Assembly (NCBI GenBank): GCA_017503005.1
Contig: JAFVTW010000003.1
Coordinates: 73,807-137,806, forward strand
Source: Clostridia bacterium
GTDB taxonomy: Bacteria; Bacillota; Clostridia; Christensenellales; UBA1242
Direction: 5' to 3'
Length of the DNA: 64,000 bases
In this document: one piece after another, positions 8,089-28,626 of the stretch
Layout of the letters: each line of letters starts with the position of its first letter
How positions within the stretch are numbered: the first letter of the stretch is position 1
Program-made: the position numbers and the translations under genes
Notes under the pieces: model-generated
Seen by the model: the letters and a program-made list of their open reading frames with translations, nothing else
What the model was told of the DNA's origin: nothing
Databases searched by the model: none

Positions 8089-11000
8089 ATGAAAAAGAAA
8101 TTTCTAACATTTTTATTTGCAATATGCTTTATGTTGCCTTGTGCAATCATACTGACTGCATGTGGTGGCAAAGACCCAGAAAAAACATTGTCAAGCATAA
8201 GTGTAGAGGCTGTTGACTCAGATGCAATATTGTCTATTGTTTATGAACCTAATGTGAGTGAACGATTTGATTTGAATGATTTTACGGTAACAGCAAATTA
8301 TTCTGATGGTAGCACAGAAGAAGTGACTGAAGGTGTTACAATGACAACATCTGGAACTTTTGATTGTTTGACTAATGATGGTAAATACATATTTACATAT
8401 CAAGAGAAAACAGCAGAAGTTCAAGTATATATTCATCAAAGAAATATTGAAACTAATGAATTTTTTGTTTGGGATTTAGAAGAAAGCTACAGATTAGAAA
8501 ATCCTGACCAACAAATTACACCAGAAATAAGATTTGAATGGTCAGAAAAAGATATAACATTAGTTAAAGATGTTGATTATACTGTTTCTTATGGTGAAAA
8601 TAATGGTAATACTATTGGTGAAACCGGTGGTAGTGTTACAATTACAGGTCAAGGCAACTATGATGGAACAATAACACGTAATTTTGCTATTTGGGGTGTA
8701 TCATCAACTGCAGAAGTTGAATTTCCTAATAGTGAAATAACCTACGACGGTAATAATCATATTCACAATGAACTAATGAGTTATGATTATATTCAAGAAC
8801 TAGAAGGTGTTGATTATGTTACATACTCATATTCAACAGATAATGGTTTTACTTGGCATGACGAAGAGTTCTATGGTTATGATTTTCAAATGGTAAATGC
8901 TGGAACTTATAAAATAAGAGCACACTTTGTAATGGATACTGGATATGAAGGTTTACCATCTGCGACAAAGACAGTAACAATTAATCCTATGAATTTGAAT
9001 GATGCTTATTTTTATGGTCCTTATGCACAAGCAACTTTTGCTAATAAAGAAATTACCTTTGGTGATTTAGAAGGTTTGTATTTTCAAATTAAACAAAATG
9101 GTGATGACCTAGTATTTGGAACCGACTTTGTTGTTGATACAGATTATAATGAAGATGGTTTTATAAATGGATATAAAGATAATATTTATGTTACTACAAA
9201 TGCAGGTGTTGTAATTAAAGGACAAGGCAACTTTACAGGTAGCAAAACTATTACATTTGCAATCAATCCATTAGAATTATGGTCAGGTCAAACTGAATTT
9301 TCAAATCTTCAGGAACAATGGACTTTTAATGGTTGTGAAATAGAACCAACATTTGACTTGTCTTATGAAGGAGTTGCTCTTGTTGAAGATTCTGATTATA
9401 CAGTATATTACGATTATAATGTATTTGCAGGAACCGGACGTATTAATATAATATATCAAGGTAATTATACAGGTCGTGAAGTAAAAACATTTGTTATTAA
9501 GCCTTATGTATTAGATATTAGTTGTTTATCATTTGAAGATGAGCCACTTACATATAATACCAAAGCTCAAGGAATAGAGATTTCACAGGAAAGTCTAGGA
9601 ACTCTTATTGGTGGAATGAATAGTAATATTATTAAATTATTCCATAATCCTGCTGATGAAACTACAATTAGATATGCAATTACTTATCGTTATACTGATG
9701 GAGATGAACTTGCAGAAATACCAATTGATGCAGGTGATTATAAGGCTTATGCTAGTTTTGGTGTTGTGAATGACACTGCTAATGAGTATTGGTATTTCAA
9801 TTCTATACAATTAATGAACGGGTCAATACCTGTAGAAACACCTTATGATGTAATTAGCAAATCATTTACTATTGCACCTTTTGAAATTAATTCTACAAAC
9901 ACAATTCATCAGTTTGAGAATGTTGATTATAGAACAAATAGTTCTGTAACTTATAAGGGTGATTATTTTGATGATATATCTACTCAATTAGTTATTGATT
10001 TTGGTAGTGGTACTACTGCGACATTTGAAGTGAACCAATGGGGAGTATGTAATGTTGGTGAATATATATTAGAACCGGATTTTGATAGTGAAGATACTAA
10101 CTATACTTTCTCAAAAGATACTTGTGGATTAGAAAATTTAACATTTACAATCAACAAACTTGAACTTACAGCTGGTAATTTTGAAACATATGCTGAGATT
10201 CCAACAATTACTTGTATTGAGGGCGATGGTGCTAATAAATATAAGATTTCTGCATTTACATCAAAACTTGAAGGCACTTATGCTTCTGAAAATGCTGAAT
10301 TGTTTATTGTAGATTATAATGCAAAAGAAAACAAATTTGCGGTAAAACTTATTGCTGAAAACTACAATATGACAGAAACTCTTTGGATTACACCAGTGGT
10401 AGCTAATGTTATTGATTTGGGCATATTTAGTTCAATAAAAATGGGGACAACAGGTTCTAGCGACACAACTGATGTAACTGATACATTTTTTACAGAAAAT
10501 CTTCTAGCGGCTGGAAAGTATTTTGAATTCTACTTTACTGAAGAAGTTTTAAATGATGAATCTATTTATGGTTGTTATCGTAAGGATAAAAATACAACAA
10601 ATGAAGCAATTAAAGAAGGTAATACTGTTATAGGTCATAGAGTTCATCTTAATGGTGCTGATTCAGCAATTGGATTTGAAATCTATGAGAATGGATATTA
10701 TAATACTATAATTATATTAACAAAAACCTACTATGTTACACCACCAGCAAAATTAATTAGCGATGATAATTATTTAAAGAATATATATGTTTTAGCATAT
10801 AACAAATCAACACAAGCAACATATGATAATAGACATTTTGATTACTATTCTTTATATGAAGTTGTTTCAGGTGAGAAATATGATGTAGATTATGTGATAG
10901 ATGATTTTGAATATGGAATAACTAATGTAATTAATATTATAGTAGATGCGACTGAGAATACAGTTTCATATCTATGCTCAAAGAGTTTAGAAGAAATGGG

Positions 11001-11934
11001 AATAGCATTAGGGTCTTTGGATACTAATGACAAAAATACTTTAAAGAATAATACTATTGATATTGCTAATTTTAAACAAGATGTAGTATATTTAATTTAT
11101 TATAGTCAAACAACGGACCTTGGCAGTCAAAAATCTATGTTATTTGATTTTACTACAGATGATGGTATCGAGACAATTTATGATAATGACCAAATAAAAA
11201 ATTATAAAGATAATATCAATGGTGTATTTATTTATGTGGATAAAGATTATGAAGGAATACACTGTATACCAACAGAATCAAATATGCAAGTTTGGGATAA
11301 AACAAATGAACAATATGTTGATGGAGATATTTATATTTCACCAAAAGGAAAACTAGTTATTTCAGCAACTGAATTAACCGAAATTGATACAGCAACTGAT
11401 GTTGAAAGTGGAATTAATGTATTTGTTCTTCCGGTAAGATATGTTTATACTTTTGCAGGTCACACATACTATGTTGAAAGCAAATTAACAATTTATAGAG
11501 AATCGTTTATATATAAATATTATGGGGAAGATAATTACAATAATGGATTTAAACATAACAATACATTGTATGATTTAACTTACCAATATTATGGATTTGC
11601 ATTAACTATTAATTCATATACAAACGATGGATCTGATTTAGCAGAAAATGATTATGGCATTTTAAGTCTAACCGTTATGAAAAATGAAACTGAACTTGCA
11701 ACACTAGCAGAAATTCAAGCATTAGATTTAACAGAAGCATTCTCACTTGATTACACAGAGGATGGTATTACTTATAATAGTGCAAGTCTTGAAACTTATG
11801 AAATCGATGGCGAGACAAGGCTATATTTGGTAATTAATTATGATTTAATTGTTACTGATGGTGCTGAAACTCCACAAACAATTCTTGAAAGAACTGGTTG
11901 TGAAAGATTAATTCAACTTAATTATGCTGCATAA
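8089..11934 (+). CDS. Large surface lipoprotein with repeated MBG-like beta-sandwich modules
   Basis: Signal peptide with lipobox LTAC. Recurring module ends: ITGQGNYDGTITRNFAI, IKGQGNFTGSKTITFAINP, IIYQGNYTGREVKTFVIKP. RBS AGGGGG. Confidence 0.7.
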   Translation: MKKKFLTFLFAICFMLPCAIILTACGGKDPEKTLSSISVEAVDSDAILSIVYEPNVSERFDLNDFTVTANYSDGSTEEVTEGVTMTTSGTFDCLTNDGKYIFTYQEKTAEVQVYIHQRNIETNEFFVWDLEESYRLENPDQQITPEIRFEWSEKDITLVKDVDYTVSYGENNGNTIGETGGSVTITGQGNYDGTITRNFAIWGVSSTAEVEFPNSEITYDGNNHIHNELMSYDYIQELEGVDYVTYSYSTDNGFTWHDEEFYGYDFQMVNAGTYKIRAHFVMDTGYEGLPSATKTVTINPMNLNDAYFYGPYAQATFANKEITFGDLEGLYFQIKQNGDDLVFGTDFVVDTDYNEDGFINGYKDNIYVTTNAGVVIKGQGNFTGSKTITFAINPLELWSGQTEFSNLQEQWTFNGCEIEPTFDLSYEGVALVEDSDYTVYYDYNVFAGTGRINIIYQGNYTGREVKTFVIKPYVLDISCLSFEDEPLTYNTKAQGIEISQESLGTLIGGMNSNIIKLFHNPADETTIRYAITYRYTDGDELAEIPIDAGDYKAYASFGVVNDTANEYWYFNSIQLMNGSIPVETPYDVISKSFTIAPFEINSTNTIHQFENVDYRTNSSVTYKGDYFDDISTQLVIDFGSGTTATFEVNQWGVCNVGEYILEPDFDSEDTNYTFSKDTCGLENLTFTINKLELTAGNFETYAEIPTITCIEGDGANKYKISAFTSKLEGTYASENAELFIVDYNAKENKFAVKLIAENYNMTETLWITPVVANVIDLGIFSSIKMGTTGSSDTTDVTDTFFTENLLAAGKYFEFYFTEEVLNDESIYGCYRKDKNTTNEAIKEGNTVIGHRVHLNGADSAIGFEIYENGYYNTIIILTKTYYVTPPAKLISDDNYLKNIYVLAYNKSTQATYDNRHFDYYSLYEVVSGEKYDVDYVIDDFEYGITNVINIIVDATENTVSYLCSKSLEEMGIALGSLDTNDKNTLKNNTIDIANFKQDVVYLIYYSQTTDLGSQKSMLFDFTTDDGIETIYDNDQIKNYKDNINGVFIYVDKDYEGIHCIPTESNMQVWDKTNEQYVDGDIYISPKGKLVISATELTEIDTATDVESGINVFVLPVRYVYTFAGHTYYVESKLTIYRESFIYKYYGEDNYNNGFKHNNTLYDLTYQYYGFALTINSYTNDGSDLAENDYGILSLTVMKNETELATLAEIQALDLTEAFSLDYTEDGITYNSASLETYEIDGETRLYLVINYDLIVTDGAETPQTILERTGCERLIQLNYAA

Positions 11935-12199: not shown

Positions 12200-12290
12200 T
12201 GGCGGAGAGAGAGGGATTTGAACCCTCGCTCCAGTTGCCCGGACTAAGGCCTTAGCAGGGCCTCCTCTTCGACCTCTTGAGTATCTCTCC
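12200..12290 (-). tRNA. tRNA-Ser (anticodon GCU), CCA encoded
   Basis: Reverse complement is GGAGAGA...TCTCTCC-G-CCA. Anticodon stem AGGCC/GGCCT with loop CTGCTAA, a long variable arm and T-loop GGTTCAAATCC. A hairpin terminator lies downstream (about 12139-12195). Confidence 0.9.
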
Positions 12291-12507
12291 ACAAAATATT
12301 AAGTTTGCTTAAAATTTAAGCATAGTTATTTTAACAAATGATGGTGCTGTTGTCAATGACTTTAATGAATAAAAAAATTAAAATTTTTACAATTTTTTGT
12401 AGATGATAATTGTTGTAAATATAGTAGTGTGATTTATTTTGTGTATCTTCAAACTTATTAATTTTGAAAATATGAAAAATAGTGTTATTATTATTGTGGA
12501 GAAAACG

Positions 12508-13458
12508 ATGCAAAACTATTTTAGTGATGAGAACAAATTAATAGAGATGCTAGACAAGTACGATAAAATCAGTGAATTAATGAATTATCAAGAAGTCTTG
12601 TTGGACAAAAAATTGTTTTTGAATTTGCAAAAACAAAAGCTTGCGATGGACAATATTGTGTGTAAATACAAAGATTTTTTAAAAATGAAACTGACACTTA
12701 GTGAAATGAAAGATTTGATGAGTACTCTAAGTAAAGATGATTTGATTTTGTTTGAAGTAGAACAGATTAAGCTGAACGAACAAATGACCATGTTGGCTAG
12801 AGAAATTAATAAGTTGTTGGTTATGTACAATGCTAGTATGGAAAGCTTGATGGTAGAGATTGTACTACTAAAAGGGCAACAATCTGCTAGAGTATATAGT
12901 GATTTAGAAGCTAGGATAAAAACTTTATGTAAACTAAACGATTTTGAATGTGTTTTGGCAGAAGACAAACTAAAAATTAGTGGTCTTAATGCTAAAGCTG
13001 TTTTGTCAAAAGTGATGGGTGTATATACAGTATATGACGGCAAAAATGCAGGTGGTTGTCAGGTGTTTGTATATGATAATCAGTTTAGTGACACATCGTT
13101 TAGAGAAGAAGATGTAGAGATAGTGGCTAGTAGGTCTAGTGGGGCTGGTGGACAGCACATAAATACCACCGATAGTTCTATTAAGGCTACACATATTCCT
13201 ACGGGAATAGTTGCTGTGTCCCAAGATGAGAGAAGTCAAATTCAAAATAGAGGCAAGGCTTTGGATAGGTTAAAGTTGAAGGTAGAAGACTTCTATATTC
13301 AACAAGCCAAGAAAGAAATTGACAAACAAAGAAAAGAACAGTTAAACACACTAAAAAGTGGAAAGAATATTTATGTTTTTGATTATACAAAGGGTGTAGT
13401 GTCATTGGGAGATAAATCCCTAGAAATATCTAAATTTGTTGATGGCGAAAATATATAG
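12508..13458 (+). CDS. Class-I peptide chain release factor paralogue (RF1-like, GGQ present, PxT/SPF loop absent)
   Basis: [44 protein letters not shown] matches the RF GGQ domain. N-terminal coiled coil resembles RF domain 1. Start ATG 12508 with RBS GGAGA. Confidence 0.8.
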
Positions 13459-13467
13459 AGGAGAAGT

Positions 13468-15876
13468 ATGGTAGATAGCTTTGTAAATGTAAAAGTAGAT
13501 ACAAAAAATGTAGTGCTAACTAGTAAAAGTCTTTTTTACAAAACAGAAAATTTCATAAAGCAAACTAGATATGTTTCAAACATAGATTTTTTGTTGTCTA
13601 AACTTTGCGAAGCTATTGTGTTAAACCTAAAACAAATTAGTCATACTTCATTAAAAACAAATGCTTTTATTGTAGAAACCAAAGATAAAATGTTTTCTTT
13701 TGTGTTTAGATTGGGTTATCAAATAGATGAAAGTTTGAATAACCATGATATTGTTTTTTGTGACTACATTAGTGCAAACAAACAATTAAGCACAAAGGTT
13801 GACGAGTATATTCTACTTCAAACGGAACTGGAACTAACCATACAAAATGTATCAAAAAACTTTTCAAATGTGGATTACAACAGATTGTATATGATATCTA
13901 CTGTATCTGGTGTAAACTTGCCTAGACTAAATAGTGAACAAAAAGAAATTGTGGAAACTATAGACAAAAATGTTTTGGTGCAAGGTGTGGCTGGCAGTGG
14001 TAAAACAAATATATGTATAGACAAGATTATTTTTACTGCTTGTAAAAATTATACAGGAAAAACTTTGTATACTACATTTAGTAGAGGATTATTAAATGAT
14101 ACAAAATTAAAAGTAGAAAATTACAAAAATGATTTAAAACAAATTTTGAAAGCATACAAAGAAAAGAAGATTGTATTTTTGGATAATAATCACAAACAGG
14201 CTTTGCAAAATAGATTGGGAATATATTTCTTTGAAGATGATGACAACCATATTTTTGACAAAATTCAAAGGGTTGTAGATTATCTAGAGCACAAGATAGA
14301 TTATGTGCTTATTGAAGATATGTACAAGTCTAAGCTGGATAAAAATGCTAAATTTGTAAATCAACAGTATTTTATCAATACTTATAGTAGAAACTTGGCA
14401 AATCACCATGTAGAGAAGAGTTTTGTTAAGCTGTCCAAATACTCTAAAGAGGTTATATTTAAAGAAATATATGGTATGATTTTTGGCTCTTACAATCCAA
14501 AATCTACTGCTGACATGATGGGAATAGAAGAATATGTGACTACTAGACAAAATAGCTTTTCTAGATCGGATTGTGAGAGTATTTACCAAATAGCTGTGGA
14601 TTATCAAAAACACTTGAAATTGAATGGGTTGGTGGATAACAATCTAGCTAGTAGAGCAATTATTGAAAAAGAAAAAGATATACAATATTCACTAGCTATA
14701 CTTGACGAGGTTCAAGACTATACCCAAGTGAATTTGTATATGTACAAAGAGCTTAGCTTGAAATTATTCTGTGTGGGCGATGCATTGCAGATGATAAACC
14801 CAACCTATTTTAGTTTTGGATATCTAAAAAATCTTTTGTACGATAAAGATGTGACAGATGTAAAAGAGCTAAAGAGTAATTATCGTAATACAGCAGAGAT
14901 TGTGAAAGTAATTGATGCTATGAATGAGATAAATAGGGCAGAATTTGGCACACACAGCTTTGTGTTGAGAGGCAAAAGTGTAGATAGTGGTCTAAAGACA
15001 ACGATGGTATATTTGGCTGAAAATGACTTTGTGGATAGGATAAGTAAAATTAGATACGAAAACTTTACAATAGTGGTGTCTAATGAAAAACAAAAGAGAG
15101 AATTAAAAAAGATTATTACAGACCAGGAAGTGTTGACTGTAAGTGAGATAAAGGGACTAGAGAGAAGTACTATCATTACTTACAATATACTTAGTGACAA
15201 TGTAGACAAGTGGAGATTGTTAGAAGCTAACAAGGTTAATCATAAGTTGGCTGATGAAAACTCTGTATTTAGATATTATTACAACTTGTTTTATGTAGCA
15301 TTGTCTAGAGCTAAACAAAATATTTTTGTTGTAGAAGACGAGAAGGTTTCGCAGTTTGAGAAGTTTTTTAGTGCACATTTTGATTGTCTGGCCGTAAACG
15401 AAGCTATTAGCGAACTAAACAAAGTAGTAGCCAAGGCTGAGTTTACTCAAAGGGAAGTTGTAGATAGAGCAATAGAGTTTATTAAACTAGAGCAATACGA
15501 AAATGCTAGATTTATGGCAGGCAAGATTAAAGATGATACTGCAAGAATTGACATGCTTAGAAATATTGATATTAACGAAAAGTATATTAGTGTGGGTAAT
15601 TACAGAGATGCTGGAATCAAGTTTTGGGAATATGGTATGCTTGCTGAGGCTAAAAAGCAGTTTGTATTGTCTAATGATGTTATGCTAATAGAGTTGATAG
15701 ATAAATGTGGTGCTGGTGGCGGAAAAGACCTAGATATAGGTATTGTGCAATATTATTGTGATGTGGAAGGAAACGACATAGCACAATCGTTTATACTAGA
15801 CACCATGAAAAAAGATGTAAAAGGGCTAAAGAGTAGCTTTAAAAATATTAAAGACAGGTTTAAACAAGGAAGGTAA
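13468..15876 (+). CDS. UvrD/Rep-like SF1 helicase-family ATPase with unknown N-terminal domain and helical C-terminus
   Basis: Motifs GVAGSGKT, ILDEVQDY, VGDALQMI, NYRNT, IKGLERSTII and LFYVALSRAKQNIFVV. RBS AGGAGA. Starts 9 nt after the upstream stop. Confidence 0.75.
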   Translation: MVDSFVNVKVDTKNVVLTSKSLFYKTENFIKQTRYVSNIDFLLSKLCEAIVLNLKQISHTSLKTNAFIVETKDKMFSFVFRLGYQIDESLNNHDIVFCDYISANKQLSTKVDEYILLQTELELTIQNVSKNFSNVDYNRLYMISTVSGVNLPRLNSEQKEIVETIDKNVLVQGVAGSGKTNICIDKIIFTACKNYTGKTLYTTFSRGLLNDTKLKVENYKNDLKQILKAYKEKKIVFLDNNHKQALQNRLGIYFFEDDDNHIFDKIQRVVDYLEHKIDYVLIEDMYKSKLDKNAKFVNQQYFINTYSRNLANHHVEKSFVKLSKYSKEVIFKEIYGMIFGSYNPKSTADMMGIEEYVTTRQNSFSRSDCESIYQIAVDYQKHLKLNGLVDNNLASRAIIEKEKDIQYSLAILDEVQDYTQVNLYMYKELSLKLFCVGDALQMINPTYFSFGYLKNLLYDKDVTDVKELKSNYRNTAEIVKVIDAMNEINRAEFGTHSFVLRGKSVDSGLKTTMVYLAENDFVDRISKIRYENFTIVVSNEKQKRELKKIITDQEVLTVSEIKGLERSTIITYNILSDNVDKWRLLEANKVNHKLADENSVFRYYYNLFYVALSRAKQNIFVVEDEKVSQFEKFFSAHFDCLAVNEAISELNKVVAKAEFTQREVVDRAIEFIKLEQYENARFMAGKIKDDTARIDMLRNIDINEKYISVGNYRDAGIKFWEYGMLAEAKKQFVLSNDVMLIELIDKCGAGGGKDLDIGIVQYYCDVEGNDIAQSFILDTMKKDVKGLKSSFKNIKDRFKQGR

Positions 15877-15879
15877 ACT

Positions 15880-16596
15880 ATGGCTGATACTAACGAAATT
15901 AAAAATCTAATAGAAACATTTAAAGAGTATAGAGATTTGATAGGACCTATAGAAGATAGTCTAAAGGCTTTTTCAACCTCTTTTGATAGTATTAGTGAAG
16001 ATATCAAGAACTTAAATACTGGTTTTGATGGCAATATTCAAGCTAAACTAGACAAGATTTACAAAGAATTATCTGGTCAGGCAGAAAAATCTAAAATATT
16101 GGCTGTTGAAGTTGATAGATTTTTAAGTTCTACAAATAAATATGTGAGTGGCATAGATAATTTGATAAAGATTTGTGAAAAAGTAGAAGAGAGATTGATT
16201 GTGGTAAACAACATTCAAAACAAGGCTGAAACTCAAATCCAAAAATTAGATGCTATTATCGAAGAAAAGAAAAAGAGTTATGATATCAAACAACTAGAGA
16301 AAAAACTAGAACAATACGATATGGGTGTCCAAAAAGTAAGTGAATATATAAATAAAGATGTAGTTGAAAGTTTGCAGAACAATACTAATACTATAGAACA
16401 AATCAAAGACAAAAATACTAGCATATACAATGCTATCCAAGAAGAAAAACTTAGTATAGATAAACTGGTGGAAAGTTACAATACATCTAGCCAGTTACTA
16501 AAGAAAGTAGTAGAAGCTAACGATGTAAATGAAGAGTATATTTTTGAGATTTTAGACAAATGGGCATTGTCTAGAAAAGTAAAAACAAAGAAATAG
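15880..16596 (+). CDS. Coiled-coil protein, unknown function
   Basis: Heptad-rich, Lys/Glu-rich sequence. 3-nt gap to the upstream gene. Confidence 0.6.
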   Translation: MADTNEIKNLIETFKEYRDLIGPIEDSLKAFSTSFDSISEDIKNLNTGFDGNIQAKLDKIYKELSGQAEKSKILAVEVDRFLSSTNKYVSGIDNLIKICEKVEERLIVVNNIQNKAETQIQKLDAIIEEKKKSYDIKQLEKKLEQYDMGVQKVSEYINKDVVESLQNNTNTIEQIKDKNTSIYNAIQEEKLSIDKLVESYNTSSQLLKKVVEANDVNEEYIFEILDKWALSRKVKTKK

Positions 16597-16607
16597 AAGG
16601 AAATTGA

Positions 16608-18494
16608 ATGGAGAAGGTTGCTATATACAATTTAATAGAAACAATACAAACAGACAACCTGTCTCTTTTTTCTGCATATGTAAAAGGTAATGAAAATATA
16701 TGTATGGGCAGGTTCCCACTATTAACCCTGTGCTATATGTATAATGCGAAAAGTATACTATCTAGATACAGAAAAGATTTGGCTAAAATATCTAGCTATA
16801 AGTTTGTAGAAGAGCCAACTATTCTGTACAAACAATTCAAAAGTATTGTAGGCAAGGCTATTAGATTTTTTAAAGTAGACAATTCTATAGTTAGTCCGTT
16901 AGAGTTTTTGGCCGCTAGCAAACAAGATAGCGAAGTAAAAAAATGGTACAAATGTTTTGTAGTTAGCGACGAGCTAAAAGCAAGTTTAAAAAAAATATAT
17001 GCCGTAGATGGAATCGGTGTAGACTTTGCTGTGGGAAAAATAAAAATACAACATAGAGTGCTTGATGTGAAAGAGAAAAAGCAGCATAAACTATATGCTA
17101 TATTTGCGGCTGCTGCAGTTGTGGTTGTGTGTAGTGTGTATGTTATATTTGGTTTAAATTTGGGATTAGGTGTTGTAGGTGTTCCATTCAAAATTAGTTC
17201 GGCTTATCAGTTGTCACAAGCTCTAAATACTAGTGGTAGTTATGTATTGAATAAAGACATTGTTATAGACGATGCAAAAGGTATAGATAGGTTTGATGGT
17301 GAAATAGATGGCAATGGTCATACCATAAAAATCAACAATTTACAAAACGGATACCTACTAAAGATAAACAATGGTGATATCAAAAATATAAACATCGAAT
17401 ATGGTGACATTTCAAAAACAATTAGCAAAAGTCAAAGTATGTTTGTTGCGACTAATAATGGTAGTATCGAAAATGTAAATATTGTATGTGGTAGATTAGG
17501 TTTTACTTGCAACAAATCTGATGATACTGATATTGTCGTGAGTGGAGTTGCAAAAGAAAACTATGGCAACATAAAAGACACTAGTGTGTTATGGAATATT
17601 AAAGCTGTAGGTGTGGGTGATGGTGAGTGTTTTGTATCTGGTATAGCAGGTAATAATTATGGTGAAATTGACAGTTGTAGCACAGCAGAAAATTCAAGTA
17701 TAGAACTAATTGAAGCTGATGGCTGTGGTATAGCGGCATATAATAATTCGGGAGCAATTATTAAAAATTGCAAAAACAATTCTACAATTTCTCAGGTTAG
17801 TGATGTGGGTGGATGGTCACCAAGTGTAGGTGGAATATCTGTAACAAATTCTGGTCAAATACAAAATAGTTACAACTATTCTAATCTTGCTATTGATTCA
17901 AACTTTGACCAAGTAGTTATAGAGGGATATATCTTTATAGGTGGGGTTTCTGCCAATAACTATGGAGATATTGCTAGATGTGTCAATTATGGTGATATAA
18001 AGGTGACAAGTGAAGTTGTTGCAGTGTATGCCGGTGGAATTAGTGGATATGCTAGTTGGACTACTATAAATGATCAAAGAGTGTATCCTACTATAGTAAA
18101 TTGTGGGGTAGATTGTACACTAGATGTGTCTACCTCAAAAGATACTGGTCTAACCTTTGTGGGTGGTATATCTGGATTTTTGTATGGTGATGTAAAACAA
18201 TGTTATTCGTTGGCTACATTTACTCAAGGGTTTGACCAAAAGAAATATTATGTAGGCACACTTCTAGGTGCATCATATATAGAATTTGGATTTTTTAATG
18301 ATGATACTTTATGCTTCTATGCAGACAAGAATATTGTCTTGTATAACGAAAATGTTTCTTGTCAAATAGGTGCCCTTATAAATTCGGGTTCTATATATGC
18401 AGTTGACTATGTTGCCGATACTAATGAGGTGCAGATAGTAGAAGATGATGCTTTGATTCTTCAATCGGAGGTGTACTGGAATGAAAAACAATAG
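16608..18494 (+). CDS. Single-pass membrane protein with extracytoplasmic GLUG-type repeats
   Basis: About 160 aa of cytoplasmic N-terminus, then TM segment AIFAAAAVVVVCSVYVIFGL. Repeats: VSGIAGNNYG, VGGISVTNSG, IGGVSANNYG, AGGISGYAS, VGGISGFLYG. Confidence 0.65.
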   Translation: MEKVAIYNLIETIQTDNLSLFSAYVKGNENICMGRFPLLTLCYMYNAKSILSRYRKDLAKISSYKFVEEPTILYKQFKSIVGKAIRFFKVDNSIVSPLEFLAASKQDSEVKKWYKCFVVSDELKASLKKIYAVDGIGVDFAVGKIKIQHRVLDVKEKKQHKLYAIFAAAAVVVVCSVYVIFGLNLGLGVVGVPFKISSAYQLSQALNTSGSYVLNKDIVIDDAKGIDRFDGEIDGNGHTIKINNLQNGYLLKINNGDIKNINIEYGDISKTISKSQSMFVATNNGSIENVNIVCGRLGFTCNKSDDTDIVVSGVAKENYGNIKDTSVLWNIKAVGVGDGECFVSGIAGNNYGEIDSCSTAENSSIELIEADGCGIAAYNNSGAIIKNCKNNSTISQVSDVGGWSPSVGGISVTNSGQIQNSYNYSNLAIDSNFDQVVIEGYIFIGGVSANNYGDIARCVNYGDIKVTSEVVAVYAGGISGYASWTTINDQRVYPTIVNCGVDCTLDVSTSKDTGLTFVGGISGFLYGDVKQCYSLATFTQGFDQKKYYVGTLLGASYIEFGFFNDDTLCFYADKNIVLYNENVSCQIGALINSGSIYAVDYVADTNEVQIVEDDALILQSEVYWNEKQ

Positions 18495-18717
18495 TATATT
18501 TAGAGTGATTAGTTTGGTTCTTTTGATAGTTGATTTGGTATTGTTATTAACTATACTAGGGTGCACAATGCTTGCAATATTTGATATGATTGTATTTAAT
18601 ATATTTCATTTAATACTAGTATGTGTATTTGTAGGTATCAATGTGTTGTATATGATATATGTGATTGTAGATTTAATCCTAAACAAAAAAAGAGAAAACA
18701 ACCTTTTAGAAAAATAA
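18481..18717 (+). CDS. Small two-TM membrane protein
   Basis: RBS GGAGGTG. 14-nt overlap with the upstream gene. Hydrophobic sequence. Confidence 0.6.
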   Translation: MKNNSIFRVISLVLLIVDLVLLLTILGCTMLAIFDMIVFNIFHLILVCVFVGINVLYMIYVIVDLILNKKRENNLLEK

Positions 18718-18725
18718 TTGAATAG

Positions 18726-18751
18726 ATAGTGAGGCAACTCACTATTTTTTT
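18726..18751 (+). terminator. Rho-independent terminator ending the 12508-18717 operon
   Basis: Hairpin atagtgag/ctcactat followed by a T7 run. Confidence 0.8.
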
Positions 18752-18828
18752 CTATCTAATATCCCTATTGAAAAAAGATAGAGTTTGTAGTAAAATACTA
18801 TTGTAAAAAATATAAAGGGGGGCTAGAG

Positions 18829-21885: not shown

Positions 21886-21961
21886 GCTGATGTAGCTCAG
21901 TCGGTAGAGCACTGCCTTGGTAAGGCAGAGGTCACGGGTTCAAGTCCCGTCATCAGCTCCA
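21886..21961 (+). tRNA. tRNA-Thr (anticodon GGU), CCA encoded
   Basis: Acceptor GCTGATG/CATCAGC, anticodon stem CTGCC/GGCAG with loop TTGGTAA, T-arm ACGGG-TTCAAGT-CCCGT. Confidence 0.92.
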
Positions 21962-22177: not shown

Positions 22178-23479
22178 TTATTGTAATATATCCAAATTCA
22201 TTTTATCAAAGAATGATTGAAGTTCTCTTAATGTGGCAGCATTTAAATTTAACTTATGTTGCTCATTAGATATTTTCTTAAAAGCTTCATAAGTTCGAAA
22301 ACTTGCTAAATACGACAGGTATGAATATAAATATATAAATCCATCTCCAAAAAACATGATGTAAGAAGCAAAATTATTCGAAGAGAATAATCTAAATAAC
22401 TTTAATGCAAATGCAAATTGTTTCTCATTTACATCAAACCAACTTTCTGATAAATAACGATTCTCATCAAAATTTTTATCTTCAATTTCTTCTTTCTTGC
22501 CTGTATTAACTTCTTTGATTGTTTCTTCGATAGATTTTATAAATCTAGCAATCATTCCAACGAAGAAATCAGCAAATCTTATCAAAGAACTTTTTTTCGA
22601 ATCTAAACATTTTACTTCAGCATAATTAAAATTGTTTGCTACATTTAAAGTATTGTCTTCATTATCTATAAAGATTTTAGTTTGTGTTTTATCAATACTC
22701 CATTTTAATAAATTCTCATTCAATGATTGAAATGCTATACTATAATCCCAATCTGTTTCTATTTTATCTTCAGCAGAACTAGAATTCTCTAGAATATTTA
22801 CTAAGGAATAAAAACAACGATTTTCACTCCATTTACGTGGAAGCCCATTGTTTTTCTTCAAAATATAATTTAGCTTATTAAGTATCTCTATTCTTGAGTC
22901 TTCAACTGATTTATTTATCAAATCATCAAATATTTCAGTAAATTTGTAAGTATATAAGAACTTGGATAGCGTATATCCAATCACCTGAAAATATGGATGA
23001 ATTTCAATTGGAATCATCAATGCCGACAGAAATCTATAAGTTAATAAACTTGTTTTGCTTAATGCACCAAATAAAAGTTTTGGAGAAACACACAGACATA
23101 AATTGACTATCTCTTCATAAAAACTTAAACAATCTTTATTAAATGAATGCAATCCATCTTTATAATATTTTATTCCAAATGTTGTTGATTTAAATTCTTT
23201 ATCGTTTGGAATACTTAGTTTGCTTTTATATTTTAGCTCTATATTTTCAAATAAATTTGCCAACTTATGATTGTTTATAATGTTGTCTCCAATAAACATA
23301 AAGCAAAAATAATCAGAACTTTGTTCTAAAAAGAAGTTTGTCAGTTCTTTATTTGTTAATTTTCTATCATGGTATATTTCATCATAATAAAATTCGTAAC
23401 AATTGCTTTTTGACAAACAACAATATTTATATTTTTTACCACTTCCACATGAGCATTTATCATTTCTGCCTATATTCAT
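22178..23479 (-). CDS. SEC-C metal-binding motif protein with a large uncharacterised (possibly DUF3800-like) body
   Basis: N-terminal RNDKCSCGSGKKYKYCC. LIRFADFFVGMIARF resembles the DUF3800 C-terminal motif. RBS AAGGAGA. Confidence 0.5.
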   Translation of the reverse strand: MNIGRNDKCSCGSGKKYKYCCLSKSNCYEFYYDEIYHDRKLTNKELTNFFLEQSSDYFCFMFIGDNIINNHKLANLFENIELKYKSKLSIPNDKEFKSTTFGIKYYKDGLHSFNKDCLSFYEEIVNLCLCVSPKLLFGALSKTSLLTYRFLSALMIPIEIHPYFQVIGYTLSKFLYTYKFTEIFDDLINKSVEDSRIEILNKLNYILKKNNGLPRKWSENRCFYSLVNILENSSSAEDKIETDWDYSIAFQSLNENLLKWSIDKTQTKIFIDNEDNTLNVANNFNYAEVKCLDSKKSSLIRFADFFVGMIARFIKSIEETIKEVNTGKKEEIEDKNFDENRYLSESWFDVNEKQFAFALKLFRLFSSNNFASYIMFFGDGFIYLYSYLSYLASFRTYEAFKKISNEQHKLNLNAATLRELQSFFDKMNLDILQ

Positions 23480-23874
23480 AAGTTCTCCTTGAGCCTAGTT
23501 TAACATAAAATAATGAAATTTGGAATATAAAACAGGAATTACATCTCAAAATCTTTTTCTCTTTTGCGTTTTCATGCCTTTCGTTCTTCCATAAGTTTTT
23601 GTAGCATATCATCAAATTCATCATCTGACATGTCTTGGTGTTGAATCTCTTGAAATGCTGGTTTTTCAAGGGATTTAGAGAGTAAAATTGCATTTTGAGT
23701 CTATTCCTTATCCTGCTCGTTAAAATTTCACATAATTTTAACTAATTTTTGTCTGTTTAACCTCCTTTTCACAAAAACTCGAGAGATGAAACCCCTCTAT
23801 AATGTTAACCAATCCAAATTGCAAAGTGTTGCCCAGTTTTGGCAAAATTTCTTAAAAAATTTTTTAATTTTAAT

Positions 23875-23903
23875 GAAAAACACCCAATCATTAAGATTGA
23901 GTG
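23875..23903 (-). terminator. Rho-independent terminator ending island operon B
   Basis: On the minus strand: hairpin cactcaatc/gattgggtg followed by a T5 run. Confidence 0.65.
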
Positions 23904-23909
23904 TAATCC

Positions 23910-24113
23910 TTAAAGTATATTATATTTTTTTATTGCTTTTAGAAATAATATAGTTGCTGGCATTCTCAGATCATGTGAAAGCTTACTCATTTTTTCTGCC
24001 ATCTCATCAAAAAGAACTCCCAAATCTTTTAATTCATTTAATTCAGGTGTGGGTAATTTTGTTAATTCAATTGCTTTTCTTTGTATTTCATTTATTAATT
24101 CTTGATCAGTCAT
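23910..24113 (-). CDS. Small helical protein (67 aa), unknown function
   Basis: Start MTDQELINE is preceded by GGAGA with a 4-nt spacer (the track start at 24137 lacks an RBS). Last gene of operon B. Confidence 0.5.
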   Translation of the reverse strand: MTDQELINEIQRKAIELTKLPTPELNELKDLGVLFDEMAEKMSKLSHDLRMPATILFLKAIKKYNIL

Positions 24114-24123
24114 TTTTTCTCCA

Positions 24124-24489
24124 TTAATATTCATCATACTTTTTATTACACCCCTTAACCTTATCAGCCGGGTATTTTTTATCGTTTTTTTCTATTTTGT
24201 TAGAAACTGCCGAACTTAAATCTATGTTGTTCATTTGAGCAAAACGAAGAACAAAATACAAAACATCAGCTAGTTCTTCTTCAACCTCAATTCTCTTATC
24301 TGAACTCATAACTTTTTTCATATCTTCTTCTGATTTAAATCTAAAGATTTGTAAAAGTTCATTTGCTTCAGTTGAAATTCCAATTGCAAGTTCTTTTGGA
24401 TTATGGAATTGATCCCAATCTCTCTTCTCGCAAAATTCTTTAACTTTATTCTTTAATTCTTCTAATGTTACTACTTTATCGTTTATCAT
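24124..24489 (-). CDS. MazG-like (all-alpha NTP pyrophosphohydrolase, dCTPase-type) protein
   Basis: RDWDQFHNPKELAIGISTEANELLQIF and EELADVLYFVLRFA match the MazG/DCTPP1 helix pair. ATGA overlap with the upstream gene. Confidence 0.75.
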   Translation of the reverse strand: MINDKVVTLEELKNKVKEFCEKRDWDQFHNPKELAIGISTEANELLQIFRFKSEEDMKKVMSSDKRIEVEEELADVLYFVLRFAQMNNIDLSSAVSNKIEKNDKKYPADKVKGCNKKYDEY

Positions 24490-25784
24490 AATTTTTCTCC
24501 TAATAACTTAAAAGCTTTACCATTTAATATACCATCTAACATTCCACCAACAGATAAGTCTCCAACAACTATTTCATCAGATGTGTCAAGCACAAACTGA
24601 TTCCTTATTTTTGCATTATCTCTATTTGTTACTTTAAGCATATTATCGAAAGGTGATATAATTAACATTTGTCCACTATTAACAGCTTTTTCAAACTTTG
24701 TCGGGCACTTGTCGTAAATTTCTCTAGACAATACCATAATAATCTTTTTGTTATTCTTTAACGATAAATCTAATAGTTTACTTTCATTTTTACTTTGAAA
24801 ACCAGAAACAATGCAAATATCTTCATCAACAGTTTCTAACCACTCAGTAATTTTACTTATTGTATTGGGATGACTCTTCTGCGAACTCAAAAATCCCATC
24901 TTGTGATTATTTAAAAGTTTTAAATTTCCTATATAATTTTCTTTTTCACTATTAAATGAAAGGTTACAACAGTCACTTGGATTATAGTTAACATGAGTTT
25001 TCCAATAGTTATATGCTTCGGTACAGTCTTCACAAACACTAATTTGTTCAAACCCTTTAATCTTACTAATAAGTTTTTTCTTTGTTTCTAATGGAAGATG
25101 ATAATATCCACCTTCTTTATGAGTATATTGAGAGTAATCTAAATCAAAAGTTCGCTTAATAAAGCCATTTACTCTAAGGAATTCCACAATTACTTTCTTA
25201 CACTTAACCTTATTTAAAATATCAAAATCAATATATTCAGGAATAAACGGACTTACTCTGATTGCAACATCAAAGCCATTGGCTGAAAGTTTTTCAATTG
25301 CTTTAATCCTTTCTGAAGAAATAGTTGCCTGTTCGTAGGTTAAAGCAGTTTTATCATCTGTACTAGTAACGGTTATTTGAATGTGTGCTAAATTTTTATC
25401 TAGAATTTTCATATATTCATCACTAGCAATCAAATTAGATTTAGTAACGATTAAATAATGAATTCCATATTTATTTAAAAATTGAATAGTTTTATATGTA
25501 ACTTTATGTTTTACTTCACAAGGTTGAAAGCAATCTGTCATGCCTCCAAGTCTTAAAACCGTTCCTTTTTCAAGAGTTTTAATCTTTTTTTCAATCTTAC
25601 TAATATCTGCCACACTAGGGTCATCAGGATGCCACAAGTCTCTAAACCCTAAAAGAGACTTTGCATAACAATACTTGCAGTCGTGAAAACAGCCACAACC
25701 ATAAGTGTCTAGTCTTGTGGAATAATGACATTTTTGTCCTTCATTACCTTCAACAGTTTTATAAAAACTTTTAAACTCTTTCAT
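24486..25784 (-). CDS. Radical SAM enzyme (SplB/COG1533-like) fused to C-terminal DprA/Smf-like (SLOG) Rossmann domain
   Basis: CGCFHDCKYCYA (CxxxCxxC), RLGGMTDCFQP and LIVTKS. C-terminal 130 aa (ICIVSGFQSKNESKLLDLSLKNNKKIIMVLSREIYDKCP...GQMLIISPF...KIRNQFVLDTSDEIVVGDLSVGG) follows the DprA pattern. Confidence 0.65.
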   Translation of the reverse strand: MKEFKSFYKTVEGNEGQKCHYSTRLDTYGCGCFHDCKYCYAKSLLGFRDLWHPDDPSVADISKIEKKIKTLEKGTVLRLGGMTDCFQPCEVKHKVTYKTIQFLNKYGIHYLIVTKSNLIASDEYMKILDKNLAHIQITVTSTDDKTALTYEQATISSERIKAIEKLSANGFDVAIRVSPFIPEYIDFDILNKVKCKKVIVEFLRVNGFIKRTFDLDYSQYTHKEGGYYHLPLETKKKLISKIKGFEQISVCEDCTEAYNYWKTHVNYNPSDCCNLSFNSEKENYIGNLKLLNNHKMGFLSSQKSHPNTISKITEWLETVDEDICIVSGFQSKNESKLLDLSLKNNKKIIMVLSREIYDKCPTKFEKAVNSGQMLIISPFDNMLKVTNRDNAKIRNQFVLDTSDEIVVGDLSVGGMLDGILNGKAFKLLGEKL

Positions 25785-25799
25785 CCTTTGTCCTCATAT

Positions 25800-27530
25800 T
25801 TAATTAAAATATTTCTTTAAATACTCATTCATGTTTTGATTACAAGCATAAATGTAGCAGCCTTTTATACCTCTTTCCATCATTACTTTGTAAGAATTAA
25901 TAATATATCTCTTTAGTTCTTCTGGAGAACTTCCTTTTTTAACATTTGTATCGTAAAAGTTATCAGGATATATTAATGTTTGATTGTTTATAGGATCATA
26001 GTCTATTTCTTTTCCTAAAATAACACCAACATAATTCAAATCATAACCTTGAGTGGTGTGAATACAACCAATCTCATTAATAGATTCTTTTCTTAAAATC
26101 CATTCTTTGTTTGTCATATTCCAAGGATAAGTTTTGTTTTCAAATTTAATATCATATAGTCCTTGATTTTTTATTTCTTCTAAAGATTTTCCTTTAGTTT
26201 TCCATTCCCATGCATATCCAGCAACATTCCTACATAACCCATATTTGTCATTAAGTTCTTTTATGCTGTCAATCATTTCATTAGGATCATCAAAAACTTT
26301 AATATCATAATTTTGTATTTGTTCTTTGCTGTCAACAGTACATTTTAGAATTTTATCTAAATAATCAATATAAAGTTTTCCACCTTCACATCTCATTTGA
26401 GAAGTTAAAGTGTACTCTTTAATTTTTGTTCTACTTAATGAATTTTTAAATTCTTCAGGTGAAATATCTGAAGCTTTTATCGATTGTTCTTTATCATAAA
26501 AAAGAATTCTATGTTTACTACTTTTCACAATCCAATCTAATGTATTAGTTGTTTCAGGTTTCATATTAAGCTTTCTACAGCACTTATCAAATTCTCCCAT
26601 CCAACTAATGTTTTTTCTTTTTGGAAGTCTATGGGTTTCATCAACTAATAATATATCAAATTGTTCACCAACAACATCTGTTGGACCAATAACCATTTTG
26701 CTTTTTAAACCGTTGTGACTCTTATTAAAAACAGCTTTAAGCGTTGCTCTTATCGATGTCATTGGCAAAACATAACCAATTTTTAGTTCTCCGTTGTCTT
26801 CAATATACTTTTTAAGTCTATGTAAAATCTTGTTTTTAAAAGTTGCATATTCAAAAGATTCTTCATCTTTAAAGGAATCTATTGTTTGAGAGTTAGCATT
26901 GGTTAACAAACTCATAATATAGATAGCTAAAATAGTTTTACCTGTACCTGCAGATCCATTGATAATACAAGTCGTACCATTCTTAGAATCTTTTTTAAGT
27001 CCATCTAGGATATCCTTAATAACATTATAGCAAACTTCTTCTTGTTCCACAGTTAAAGAAGTATATGGGGAATAGGTAAACAGATCACTATTAACAATTG
27101 ATTCATAAGTAGATTTAGCAAGATTTAAATCTCTTAAATAATCCCATATTCCTTTATTTTCTTCAGATCCTTCAATTTTGTTTAAATATTTTTCCCTTTG
27201 ATAATAGTTGTGTTTTGAAGATTGTCCTGCATTCCCATTTAACAAAGTGAACTTTTGGTCTGCATTACACATTCTAATCAAAGATTGCTCAATATCTAAT
27301 ACTGCAGATTTATTAAATTCATCATCAAAAATAACATGAATATCTTTTAATCCACGCTTTTGCTTATTATCTAAGTGTTGTCCAAATCTATTAAAGAAAT
27401 TACTTGTTTCTCCAATGTACAAATAACTTTTATTGTTAATTAAATAAACAACAGGCCAATCTCTACCTTTTGCTTCATTTAGAACTAAATTTCGTCCTTC
27501 TTGAGAGAAACTAAAACTTTTAATTTGCAT
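25800..27530 (-). CDS. GIY-YIG nuclease domain fused to DUF2075 (Schlafen-type SF1) ATPase
   Basis: GIY-YIG: VVYLINNKSYLYIGETSNFFNRFGQH. ATPase: GSAGTGKT, LLVDETHRL, GYAWEW, IHTTQGYDLNYVGVILG. RBS GGAGA. Confidence 0.7.
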   Translation of the reverse strand: MQIKSFSFSQEGRNLVLNEAKGRDWPVVYLINNKSYLYIGETSNFFNRFGQHLDNKQKRGLKDIHVIFDDEFNKSAVLDIEQSLIRMCNADQKFTLLNGNAGQSSKHNYYQREKYLNKIEGSEENKGIWDYLRDLNLAKSTYESIVNSDLFTYSPYTSLTVEQEEVCYNVIKDILDGLKKDSKNGTTCIINGSAGTGKTILAIYIMSLLTNANSQTIDSFKDEESFEYATFKNKILHRLKKYIEDNGELKIGYVLPMTSIRATLKAVFNKSHNGLKSKMVIGPTDVVGEQFDILLVDETHRLPKRKNISWMGEFDKCCRKLNMKPETTNTLDWIVKSSKHRILFYDKEQSIKASDISPEEFKNSLSRTKIKEYTLTSQMRCEGGKLYIDYLDKILKCTVDSKEQIQNYDIKVFDDPNEMIDSIKELNDKYGLCRNVAGYAWEWKTKGKSLEEIKNQGLYDIKFENKTYPWNMTNKEWILRKESINEIGCIHTTQGYDLNYVGVILGKEIDYDPINNQTLIYPDNFYDTNVKKGSSPEELKRYIINSYKVMMERGIKGCYIYACNQNMNEYLKKYFN

Positions 27531-27559
27531 ATTTTATCTCCAAAATAACTTTTCACCAT

Positions 27560-28624: not shown

Positions 28625-28626
28625 AA

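Follow-up and report, generated by a model that had tools for sequence, protein, structure and literature searches.

The window, that is, the whole stretch of 64,000 nucleotides of the Clostridia bacterium contig that was analysed, carries five plus-strand open reading frames at positions 12508-18717, whose boundaries in the ORF list of the window are exactly those given in the preliminary description of this DNA. The genes and the signals around them, with the evidence for each, are:

12350-12378, + strand: tentative sigma-70-like promoter candidate, TTGTCA-17-AAAAAT (consensus scan)
12464-12491, + strand: tentative sigma-70-like promoter candidate, TTGAAA-16-TGnTATTAT (consensus scan)
12508-13458, + strand: putatively RF1-derived release-factor-like (RF-like) protein, 316 aa (Pfam, NCBIfam, alignments, dN/dS)
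13468-15876, + strand: SF1A UvrD/PcrA-type ATPase, 802 aa (Pfam, invariant motifs, AF2, Foldseek, profile search of the PDB, dN/dS)
15880-16596, + strand: alpha-helical coiled-coil-type protein, 238 aa (periodicity, conservation, dN/dS)
16608-18494, + strand: predicted type-II membrane protein, 628 aa (AF2, Foldseek, sub-threshold M26_N match, dN/dS)
18481-18717, + strand: 78-aa protein with two hydrophobic segments (position in the loci, dN/dS)
18724-18757, + strand: intrinsic-terminator-like hairpin (18724-18747; 10-bp stem, 4-nt loop) and T-run

Successive genes are spaced by 9, 3 and 11 nt and, for the last pair, overlap by 14 nt (-14), as expected from the compact set described earlier, and a ribosome-binding site of the GGAG, AGGAG or GGAGG type lies 6-10 nt 5' of each of the five ATG codons, in keeping with the good site claimed for every gene. 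The single terminator said to close the set, formerly placed at 18726-18751, was recovered with slightly different limits. Stop/start overlaps between the genes suggest translational coupling, and the spacing, the single terminator and the conserved gene order point to one operon-like unit. Among the sequencing runs searched for this region, no RNA run contained it, and one run of unknown type contained only short contigs from a related strain. Whereas gene callers elsewhere start the first gene at ATG 12472 (328 aa), its homologues and its ribosome-binding site favour 12508 as the probable start. Promoter-like sites in the intergenic region 5' of the operon (12350-12491) were no more numerous in the consensus scan than in shuffled sequence, and no Rfam element was found in the operon leader, the Rfam scan of the window having matched two tRNAs only. 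Purifying selection acts on each of the five genes (dN/dS 0.06-0.18), from the coiled-coil protein (0.06) through the ATPase (0.085), the RF-like protein (0.13) and the 78-aa protein (0.16) to the 628-aa membrane protein (0.18).

The product of the first gene matches Pfam RF-1 (PF00472) at 91.8 bits (cut-off 35), with a sub-threshold Pfam match over its PCRF region. Its scores against more specific models are 119 and 107 bits for prfA (TIGR00019 and NF001859; cut-offs 400 and 423), 86 bits for NCBIfam prfB (cut-off 370), 79 bits for prfH (TIGR03072; cut-off 166.65) and 37.9 bits for ArfB (NF006718; cut-off 100). Alignments indicate that domain 1 and a near-canonical GGQ peptidyl-tRNA-hydrolase domain are kept, while the elements that read stop codons are gone from the 27-locus alignment: the PxT/SPF loop, at whose site there is an 8-residue deletion, the GGxEA tip of helix alpha5 and the domain-4 motif 'GDRSERIRTYNFPQ.R.TDHR'. 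The GGQ and the domain 3 around it are found in 28/28 cassette-linked RF-like proteins and PxT/SPF in 0/28; what remains of the decoding domain evolves fast (32-43% identity across loci). Over its full length the protein appears closer to RF1, suggestive of an RF1 origin, and the conservation of its GGQ domain and domain 1 is what would be expected for ribosome binding; its predicted activity is that of a codon-independent peptidyl-tRNA hydrolase. Being a full-length release-factor homologue with PCRF and RF-1 regions, it might be taken for a housekeeping prfA that is the chance neighbor of unrelated genes. This reading is almost certainly wrong and was rejected on motifs, score and conservation: the best prfA score lies far below its 400-bit cut-off, the PxT, GGxEA-tip and domain-4 motifs are all missing, and the protein belongs to a separate clade with 33-44% identity inside and no more than 30% to canonical RF1. 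Moreover, the gene is missing from some cassette-bearing lineages and its linkage to the cassette is kept in 28 loci, which bears out the earlier suspicion that it is not canonical prfA. As the window makes use of each of the three stop codons, a decoding release factor is needed elsewhere.

The 802-aa protein matches Pfam UvrD-helicase (PF00580) at 32 bits (cut-off 23) and contains SF1 motifs Q, I, II (DExx), III, IV, V and VI, all of them invariant in 28 homologues. Its AF2 model (pLDDT 82) has a two-RecA fold, for which Foldseek returned UvrD/PcrA/Rep (E 1e-13), HelD (5e-12) and, among further fold matches, Upf1; the best match of its profile in the PDB was PcrA (5e-9). These fold matches do not discriminate a DNA from an RNA substrate; UvrD/PcrA-type SF1A enzymes act mainly as motors on DNA. 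The model further displays a private alpha/beta N-domain (residues 1-150), an all-helical insertion of ~195 aa within 1A and a C-domain (640-802) made of a helical repeat with a basic tail at its end. Neither terminal domain matched Pfam when searched in isolation, so that the description of this protein as a complete SF1 core with N- and C-terminal domains of no known family stands. Some 83 aa with few secondary-structure elements separate NYRN (471-474) from KGLER (562-566), and this distance between motifs IV and V leaves no room for a 2B domain of UvrD size. A match to NCBIfam helicase IV (NF008276) covering part of the N-domain reached 22.8 bits against a cut-off of 543.

The 238-aa protein displays a strong hydrophobic periodicity of 3.5 residues that none of 500 shuffles reached, consistent with the coiled coil proposed for it, and, in its C-terminal part, a conserved 'DVNEEYIFEILDKWA..RKVKTKK'. 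No other component is as conserved across loci (61-79% identity), and the protein is rare: only 72 clusters in 1.84 billion representatives contain relatives, and the near-full-length ones all measure 232-247 aa, none being longer, which excludes fusions among them. It has no relative in Pfam and, like the 628-aa protein, yielded only non-significant heptad-repeat or tail-fibre matches when its profile was compared with the PDB.

In the AF2 model of the 628-aa protein (pLDDT 90), a helical N-domain (1-132) with an invariant GRFPxL motif is followed by a transmembrane helix (154-185) and a beta-helix (190-611), suggestive of a type-II topology, with the helical domain in the cytoplasm and the beta-helix, which is right-handed and of the IgA1-protease/GLUG type, outside the cell. 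Foldseek matched the beta-helix of IgA1 protease (E 5e-3, probability 0.99-1.0), and the match to M26_N (PF05342; 21-22 bits) remained below the gathering cut-off of 27.7. The isolated cytoplasmic domain found no match in Pfam, and the protein of the window none to Pfam GLUG (PF07581), a domain carried by its distant homologues. Thus, of the GLUG-repeat membrane protein described earlier, the cytoplasmic domain, single transmembrane segment and ectodomain hold, and the term GLUG-repeat applies at the level of the fold only. The ectodomain evolves fast (36-50% identity across loci). The two-TM character assigned to the 78-aa protein agrees with its two hydrophobic segments, and a small 2-TM ORF occupies this position in nearly all complete loci.

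The cassette was found in ~38 species-level loci, all from uncultured Clostridia/Christensenellales of animal guts, with the same gene order in every locus examined; conservation in so many divergent loci places this order beyond chance. The helicase, the coiled-coil protein, the membrane protein and the small 2-TM protein make up the invariant core. The RF-like gene heads the cassette in 28 loci, so that the pairing with an SF1 ATPase whose recurrence in other genomes had been named as a test does recur, and is missing in 5/33 determinable loci, three of which have a PadR regulator in the head position. The RF-like gene is thus a frequent but dispensable head on a four-gene core whose primary job, given these five loci, need not be translational. 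The flanks, read over ±8-10 kb, consist of housekeeping genes (Rel/SpoT, GpsA, RsmD, Tmk, EF-P, DnaD/DnaI), and a GNAT-like gene and Rel stay in long-range synteny with the cassette across subclades of 0.28-0.60 GC. The GC of the cassette is native, all close strains have it whereas its flanks and the neighboring island vary, and viral contigs neither contained a relative of the coiled-coil protein nor carried the cassette. Housekeeping flanks, synteny, native GC and the lack of viral copies argue against a mobile defence island and favour vertical descent of the cassette within a single lineage of gut Clostridia, the Christensenellales and their relatives.

This helicase/membrane operon headed by an RF-like gene matches no described system that we found, as the preliminary description had anticipated: the combination of a release factor, a helicase and membrane proteins is described in none of the publications, PADLOC models or solved structures searched, and the release-factor literature searched, including the survey of release-factor diversity by Burroughs and Aravind, makes no mention of a helicase-linked release factor. 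Searches of PADLOC and PHROGs with the operon proteins returned generic UvrD and coiled-coil matches only. ArfB, ICT1 and mtRF-R (C12orf65) consist of a GGQ domain of ~140 aa with a basic C-terminal tail and lack domains 1, 2 and 4. They share with the RF-like protein its predicted activity, GGQ-dependent release without stop-codon reading, and differ from it in that the latter has 316 aa with domains 1 and 2/4; this size and a score of 37.9 versus 100 bits place it outside ArfB. PrfH, found with RtcB2 (PMC9304027, PMC12829566), is likewise a release-factor paralogue with a GGQ and a remodelled decoding domain that does not read stop codons, and its conserved operon also encodes a partner that acts enzymatically on nucleic acid. 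However, PrfH is RF2-derived, has ~200 aa and no domain 1, is partnered with an RNA ligase without membrane components and spreads by horizontal transfer, whereas the protein described here keeps domain 1, appears closer to RF1, is accompanied by an SF1 ATPase and membrane proteins and looks vertically inherited; with 79 versus 166.65 bits and no RtcB gene at any locus examined, PrfH was also rejected. The pairing of an NTP-driven motor with an RF-type A-site protein is reminiscent, by analogy, of HrpA (PMC11419001), MutS2 (PMC10897456), Upf1-eRF1/eRF3 and Dom34-ABCE1. None of these is membrane-anchored and none of their motors shares homology with the operon ATPase beyond the SF1 core: HrpA belongs to SF2, and Upf1, also SF1, to SF1B, whereas the operon ATPase is SF1A and UvrD-like. 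UvrD/PcrA/Rep and HelD have the same SF1A core with all motifs and provide the best structural and profile matches; at 10-13% identity, they differ in lacking the private N- and C-domains and in their operon partners, and UvrD/PcrA/Rep also in a 2B domain for which the operon ATPase has no space. HelD/helicase IV was rejected on its score (22.8 versus 543 bits) and on the modelled N-domain, which is alpha/beta and has no coiled-coil arm. Gabija was set aside since the weak similarity of the ATPase to GajB profiles (<=45 bits) concerns the generic UvrD core only and the OLD-type nuclease GajA is missing from the operon and its flanks.

Our best, though tentative, reading of these data is that an ATPase complex anchored at the membrane removes translation complexes that have stalled, and that the RF-like protein serves it as a codon-independent peptidyl-tRNA hydrolase. 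Firmicutes lack ArfB (PMC6514570), which leaves room for another codon-independent releaser, and there is precedent both for a release-factor paralogue working with a partner enzyme, in PrfH-RtcB (PMC9304027, PMC12829566), and for helicase-driven rescue, in HrpA (PMC11419001). The core would form a motor complex, tethered to the membrane, for complexes of translation, or of coupled transcription and translation, that have stalled. Once in the A site of the ribosome, which it would reach with no check of the codon, the RF-like protein would cleave peptidyl-tRNA, an action modelled on ArfB, on PrfH and on RF2 on ArfA/BrfA. The ATPase would spend ATP on stripping or translocating nucleic acid or on taking the complex apart, as in HrpA, MutS2, Upf1 and ABCE1. 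Both enzymes may be tethered or gated by the coiled-coil protein and by the cytoplasmic part of the membrane protein, whose ectodomain may link rescue to envelope state. The data show the gene arrangement, its conservation, the motif states, purifying selection, the folds and the phyletic pattern; that the proteins bind ribosomes and form a physical complex, that release is codon-independent in practice, the substrate of the ATPase and the membrane role are all inferred here. The rescue reading leaves the need for an extracellular beta-helix unexplained; the DNA-motor character of most UvrD/PcrA-type SF1A enzymes and the occurrence of the core without the RF-like gene also speak against it.

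Were the cassette an abortive-infection or stress-triggered shut-off device, the helicase and/or the membrane protein would sense phage nucleic acid or envelope damage, and the unleashed codon-blind RF-like protein would free nascent chains from elongating ribosomes and arrest the cell. A codon-independent GGQ hydrolase would presumably make an effective translation toxin, the helicase has weak GajB-type PADLOC matches (45 bits), and the ectodomain and the decoding remnant diverge faster than the coiled-coil protein (36-50% and 32-43% versus 61-79% identity); in addition, a defence island lies 3.4 kb downstream in the window, and methylase, HTH and Fic genes neighbor the cassette at one locus (L001). 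We nevertheless consider this unlikely. GajA is missing, neither the RF-like protein nor either membrane protein has a PADLOC match, and those of the coiled-coil protein are weak (E 5e-4 to 6e-3) and concern coiled-coil segments of LmuB, DruC, ZorA and LeoC. Conservation of the helicase and the coiled-coil protein is unusually high for defence genes, and the cassette, limited to one lineage, with native GC and absent from viral contigs, is missing from none of the close strains, in contrast to the variable neighboring island. Vertical inheritance and syntenic housekeeping flanks weaken abortive infection relative to cellular quality control.

Similarly improbable is a core that targets DNA or RNA polymerase, in HelD-like recycling of stalled polymerase or UvrD-like backtracking or repair at the membrane, the RF-like add-on removing the coupled ribosome. 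The ranking of fold and profile matches, with UvrD/PcrA/Rep followed by HelD-RNAP complexes, the weak helicase IV match over part of the N-domain and the persistence of the core without the RF-like gene are suggestive of such a role. So is the modelled spacing of motifs IV and V, which, as in the architecture of HelD, could not accommodate a 2B domain of UvrD size. However, the helicase IV score is far below its cut-off, the modelled N-domain is not the coiled-coil secondary-channel arm of HelD, the operon has no nuclease or DNA-binding partner and the membrane proteins would be left unexplained. Less probable still appears a function at the envelope or surface (signalling, cell-wall or adhesin biogenesis), with the RF-like protein cleaving a non-ribosomal ester or acting as a regulator. 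In its favour, the operon encodes two membrane proteins among its five products, one of them having a beta-helix of adhesin type, and very large surface proteins often adjoin the cassette, such as a 1281-aa lipoprotein in the window and a 1418-aa Flg_new/GLUG protein at L001, with an LRR protein at L002 and a 2133-aa protein at L004 as further large neighbors. These neighbors are of differing families, however, the lipoprotein of the window is missing in a close strain, and the conservation of domain 1 and of the GGQ domain is that expected of a ribosome-binding protein.

Returning to the rescue of stalled translation, each of the known bacterial release-factor paralogues, PrfH and ArfB, opened a new ribosome-rescue pathway, and the RF-like protein would, judging from its alignments, represent a third, full-length paralogue type that has shed stop-codon reading, kept the GGQ site and become tied to an SF1 motor and the membrane. 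If its link with the ATPase is functional, the operon would provide a bacterial example of helicase-coupled, codon-independent termination and of translation quality control at the membrane in abundant uncultured gut Clostridia. More doubtful is the wider proposal of a new bacterial translation-surveillance machine, in which a membrane-anchored SF1 helicase complex recruits a codon-blind, RF1-derived hydrolase by which ribosomes or expressomes that have stalled are terminated and taken apart; if true, Firmicutes would possess a new route of rescue, functionally analogous to Upf1-eRF1 or Dom34-ABCE1.

The five plus-strand ORFs of the preliminary description, separated by gaps of 9, 3 and 11 nt and a 14-nt overlap, were recovered at identical coordinates. 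GGAG-type Shine-Dalgarno sequences precede all five starts, in keeping with the good ribosome-binding site ascribed to each gene, and the single terminator thought to close the set corresponds to a hairpin and T-run at 18724-18747, the only such element after it.

Features of the cassette and its upstream border
12200-12290, minus strand: tRNA-Ser(gct), between the cassette and the upstream gene
12508-13458, plus strand: release-factor-like (RF-like) protein, 316 aa
13468-15876, plus strand: UvrD-type helicase, 802 aa
15880-16596, plus strand: coiled-coil protein, 238 aa
16608-18494, plus strand: membrane protein, 628 aa
18481-18717, plus strand: small two-TM protein, 78 aa

Rfam revealed nothing beyond tRNA genes in the window, whose GC content (~0.31) is of the low-GC, Firmicute type and to which the standard code applies since all three stop codons are in use (TAA 33, TAG 12, TGA 3). 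In public assemblies the RF-like gene is called from ATG 12472 (328 aa); its homologues begin ('MQ..') at the position of 12508, the start that a ribosome-binding site precedes.

The head gene encodes a release-factor derivative falling below all equivalog cut-offs of NCBIfam (prfA, 119 against 400 bits; prfB, 86 against 370; prfH, 79 against 167; ArfB, 38 against 100), which vindicates the earlier doubt about a canonical prfA; that it is the housekeeping prfA is effectively excluded. ArfB is absent from Firmicutes (PMC6514570). Pfam detected the RF-1 (GGQ) domain (91.8 bits) and, below threshold, PCRF. Among 5.8 billion proteins searched, the RF-like protein belongs to a separate clade of ~59 clusters (305-330 aa, 33-96% identity to the query), canonical RF1 (~356 aa) showing <=30% identity in the same search; NCBI names the members only 'PCRF domain-containing' or 'peptide chain release factor-like' protein.

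Alignment with canonical RF1 indicates that domain 1 is kept, together with a nearly canonical domain 3 ('[24 protein letters not shown]...Q.ERSQ.QN'). Lost are the PxT loop (an 8-residue deletion opposite RF1 'P.TE..GRIHTS'), the tip of helix alpha5 ('G.GG(D/E)EA'), the domain-4 motif 'GDRSERIRTYNFPQ.R.TDHR' and the final ~20 residues. Structures of RF1/RF2 on the ribosome have established that stop codons are read by these elements. GGQ was found in 28/28 cassette-linked homologues and PxT or SPF in 0/28. The GGQ domain and domain 1 are conserved as in ribosome-binding release factors and the decoding elements are gone, a loss from which the protein is predicted to be codon-independent. The homologue at locus L028 (2500-3549, Clostridiales bacterium DTU072) is intermediate, with a GGEEA tip, a 'YESG.H' motif and a longer C-terminus, and without PxT; the form agrees with an RF1 ancestor whose decoding elements were shed, and may be a snapshot of the transition. 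Canonical prfA and prfB are, we infer, present in the cassette genomes.

The helicase appears, from its sequence, to be a catalytically intact SF1A ATPase with private terminal domains. As the preliminary description held, all SF1 motifs are there, and they are invariant across 28 homologues: the Q motif, GxGSGKT (residues 173-180), DEVQD (413-417), GDxxQ (437-441), NYRN (471-474), KGLER (562-566) and VxxxRA (610-615). The N- and C-terminal domains, which it did not recognise, matched no Pfam family when searched in isolation. In the AF2 model (pLDDT 82), the N-domain (1-150) is alpha/beta, domain 1A holds a ~195-aa helical insertion, the spacing between motifs IV and V (~83 residues) is too short for a UvrD-size 2B domain, and the C-domain (640-802) is a helical repeat ending in a basic tail. 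Foldseek ranked UvrD/PcrA/Rep first (E ~1e-13), then HelD-RNAP complexes (5e-12), with SF1B enzymes (Upf1, Ighmbp2, Sen1) lower; against PDB sequences, the helicase profile matched PcrA (5e-9), the HelD match being confined to the Walker A region.

The coiled-coil protein displays a strong 3.5-residue hydrophobic periodicity (reached by 0/500 shuffles) and has no relative in Pfam or the PDB. Its family is tiny (72 clusters in 1.84 billion representatives) and never fused, since all near-full-length matches are 232-247 aa and none is longer. The membrane protein is modelled (pLDDT 90) with a cytoplasmic helical domain (residues 1-132) bearing an invariant GRFPxL motif, a single TM helix (154-185) and a right-handed beta-helix (190-611) whose nearest solved structures are IgA1-protease N-terminal domains. 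Elsewhere in the window, a GLUG motif just below threshold (20.1 against 20.5 bits) occurs in a 702-aa protein that has no relation to the cassette; its gene (41677-43785) precedes those of an ABC/FtsX fusion and a P-type ATPase. The 78-aa protein has two hydrophobic segments, and a similar small ORF follows the membrane-protein gene in nearly all complete loci.

All six divergent RF-like proteins traced to contigs sit in the same cassette, with differing flanks. Using the coiled-coil protein as query and one genome per GTDB species, we identified 33 loci, all in uncultured Clostridia, Christensenellales or 'Christensenella' MAGs that come from guts (human, ruminant, chicken and others); gut metagenomes also contain the window itself. 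HMM mapping placed the helicase, coiled-coil and membrane proteins together in every locus long enough, and the helicase is coupled obligatorily to the coiled-coil protein and two membrane proteins. The pairing of RF-like gene and SF1 ATPase, which had been put forward for a search of other genomes, is conserved: with five loci whose contigs end left out of the count, the RF-like gene lies directly upstream of the helicase gene in 27 distinct loci including the window, and also in L046, a very distant cassette (membrane protein only 24% identity). It is absent from five loci: unrelated genes lie upstream in L031 and L034, and the head position in L037, L039 and L042 is taken by a PadR-family regulator (in L037, 5037-5633, PadR + Vir_act_alpha_C, ending 3 nt before the helicase gene). 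These RF-less loci form two high-GC clades in the coiled-coil protein tree; the RF-like gene is an add-on that the cassette often carries but can dispense with. Identity to the window is 61-79% for the coiled-coil protein, 53-73% for the helicase, 36-50% for the membrane protein, 32-43% for the RF-like protein and 20-39% for the small protein, and dN/dS values of 0.06-0.18 for the five genes (relative to a strain of 96.5% nucleotide identity) denote purifying selection. Genes split into two overlapping ORFs, of the membrane protein in L008/L012 (14099-15780) and of the helicase in L024 (5540-7971) and L039 (1525-3860), represent frameshift pseudogenes or else errors of MAG assembly.

Homologous loci were read to ±8-10 kb of flank. 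The cassette matches its surroundings in GC, and the flanks are mainly housekeeping (EF-P, GlmS, GpsA, Tmk, RsmD, DnaD/DnaI-like, a long Rel/SpoT protein), flanking-ORF clustering revealing synteny inside subclades and, to some extent, over the deepest split. A GNAT-like gene recurs nearby at locus GC 0.33 and 0.53-0.60. The cassette is kept in all close strains, the upstream lipoprotein gene and downstream island being variable, and the coiled-coil protein is not encoded on any viral contig searched. Such a pattern is the mark of an old, lineage-specific module passed on vertically rather than of a hopping defence island. In five loci with the RF-like gene (L029, L030, L033, L035, L036), a long RSH (Rel/SpoT) gene lies 1-2 kb upstream of the cassette on the same strand; in three high-GC loci (L037-L039) it lies 200-260 nt downstream, again on the same strand. 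Of these three, two are without the RF-like gene and the third is on a contig ending inside the helicase. The proximity to rel, intriguing for a translation-linked system, may be due to synteny alone, or the cassette and a ribosome-associated factor may be functional neighbours.

The variable upstream gene (8089-11934) encodes a 1281-aa lipoprotein (lipobox LTAC) without a Pfam match; it is missing in close strains L043 and L044, where a ZIP transporter gene directly precedes the RF-like gene. The downstream island (22178-35694, minus strand; GC 0.24-0.28) follows tRNA-Thr(ggt) (21886-21961) and carries defence-type genes: DUF3800+SEC-C, MazG-like, radical SAM with a DprA-like C-terminus, Schlafen-group-3 helicase+GIY-YIG, a Ser/Thr kinase, a 1180-aa STAND NTPase and a 1156-aa UvrD+RQC helicase. 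A phage-type integrase at the same position in close strain L045 suggests that the island is an integrative one, located at the tRNA-Thr gene.

Tentatively, we favour a membrane-tethered ATPase complex that would resolve stalled translation or transcription-translation complexes, within which the RF-like protein would serve as a codon-independent peptidyl-tRNA hydrolase, because this reading fits most constraints (GGQ and domain 1 kept, intact ATPase, coupling, dispensable RF-like protein, vertical inheritance). The toxin-like potential of the RF-like protein and a fast-evolving ectodomain would suit a translation shut-off effector of abortive infection, but the phyletic pattern speaks against this role, which we consider unlikely. 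Little probability is likewise given to a core directed at DNA or RNAP, in the manner of HelD or UvrD, with ribosome removal added on, and an envelope function has only a slim chance.

ArfA and BrfA are adaptors that recruit RF2, a precedent for the RF-like half of the cassette, and Upf1-eRF1 and Dom34-ABCE1, which use NTP to split or clear stalled ribosomes, offer one for the ATPase half. PrfH-RtcB, in which an RF paralogue with a remodelled decoding domain is paired with a partner enzyme (PMC9304027, PMC12829566), is a further precedent for the RF-like half; HrpA (PMC11419001) and MutS2 (PMC10897456), which split or clear stalled ribosomes at the expense of NTP, are precedents for the ATPase half. 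Beyond an SF1A core and an RF-1 domain, the cassette could be placed in none of the known families tested, and its combination had no match in the literature searched, a 2019 survey of RF diversity, PADLOC or PHROGs. We regard the cassette as a module of an RF paralogue with partners for which there is no precedent; it might, though this is doubtful, represent a new kind of surveillance machine.
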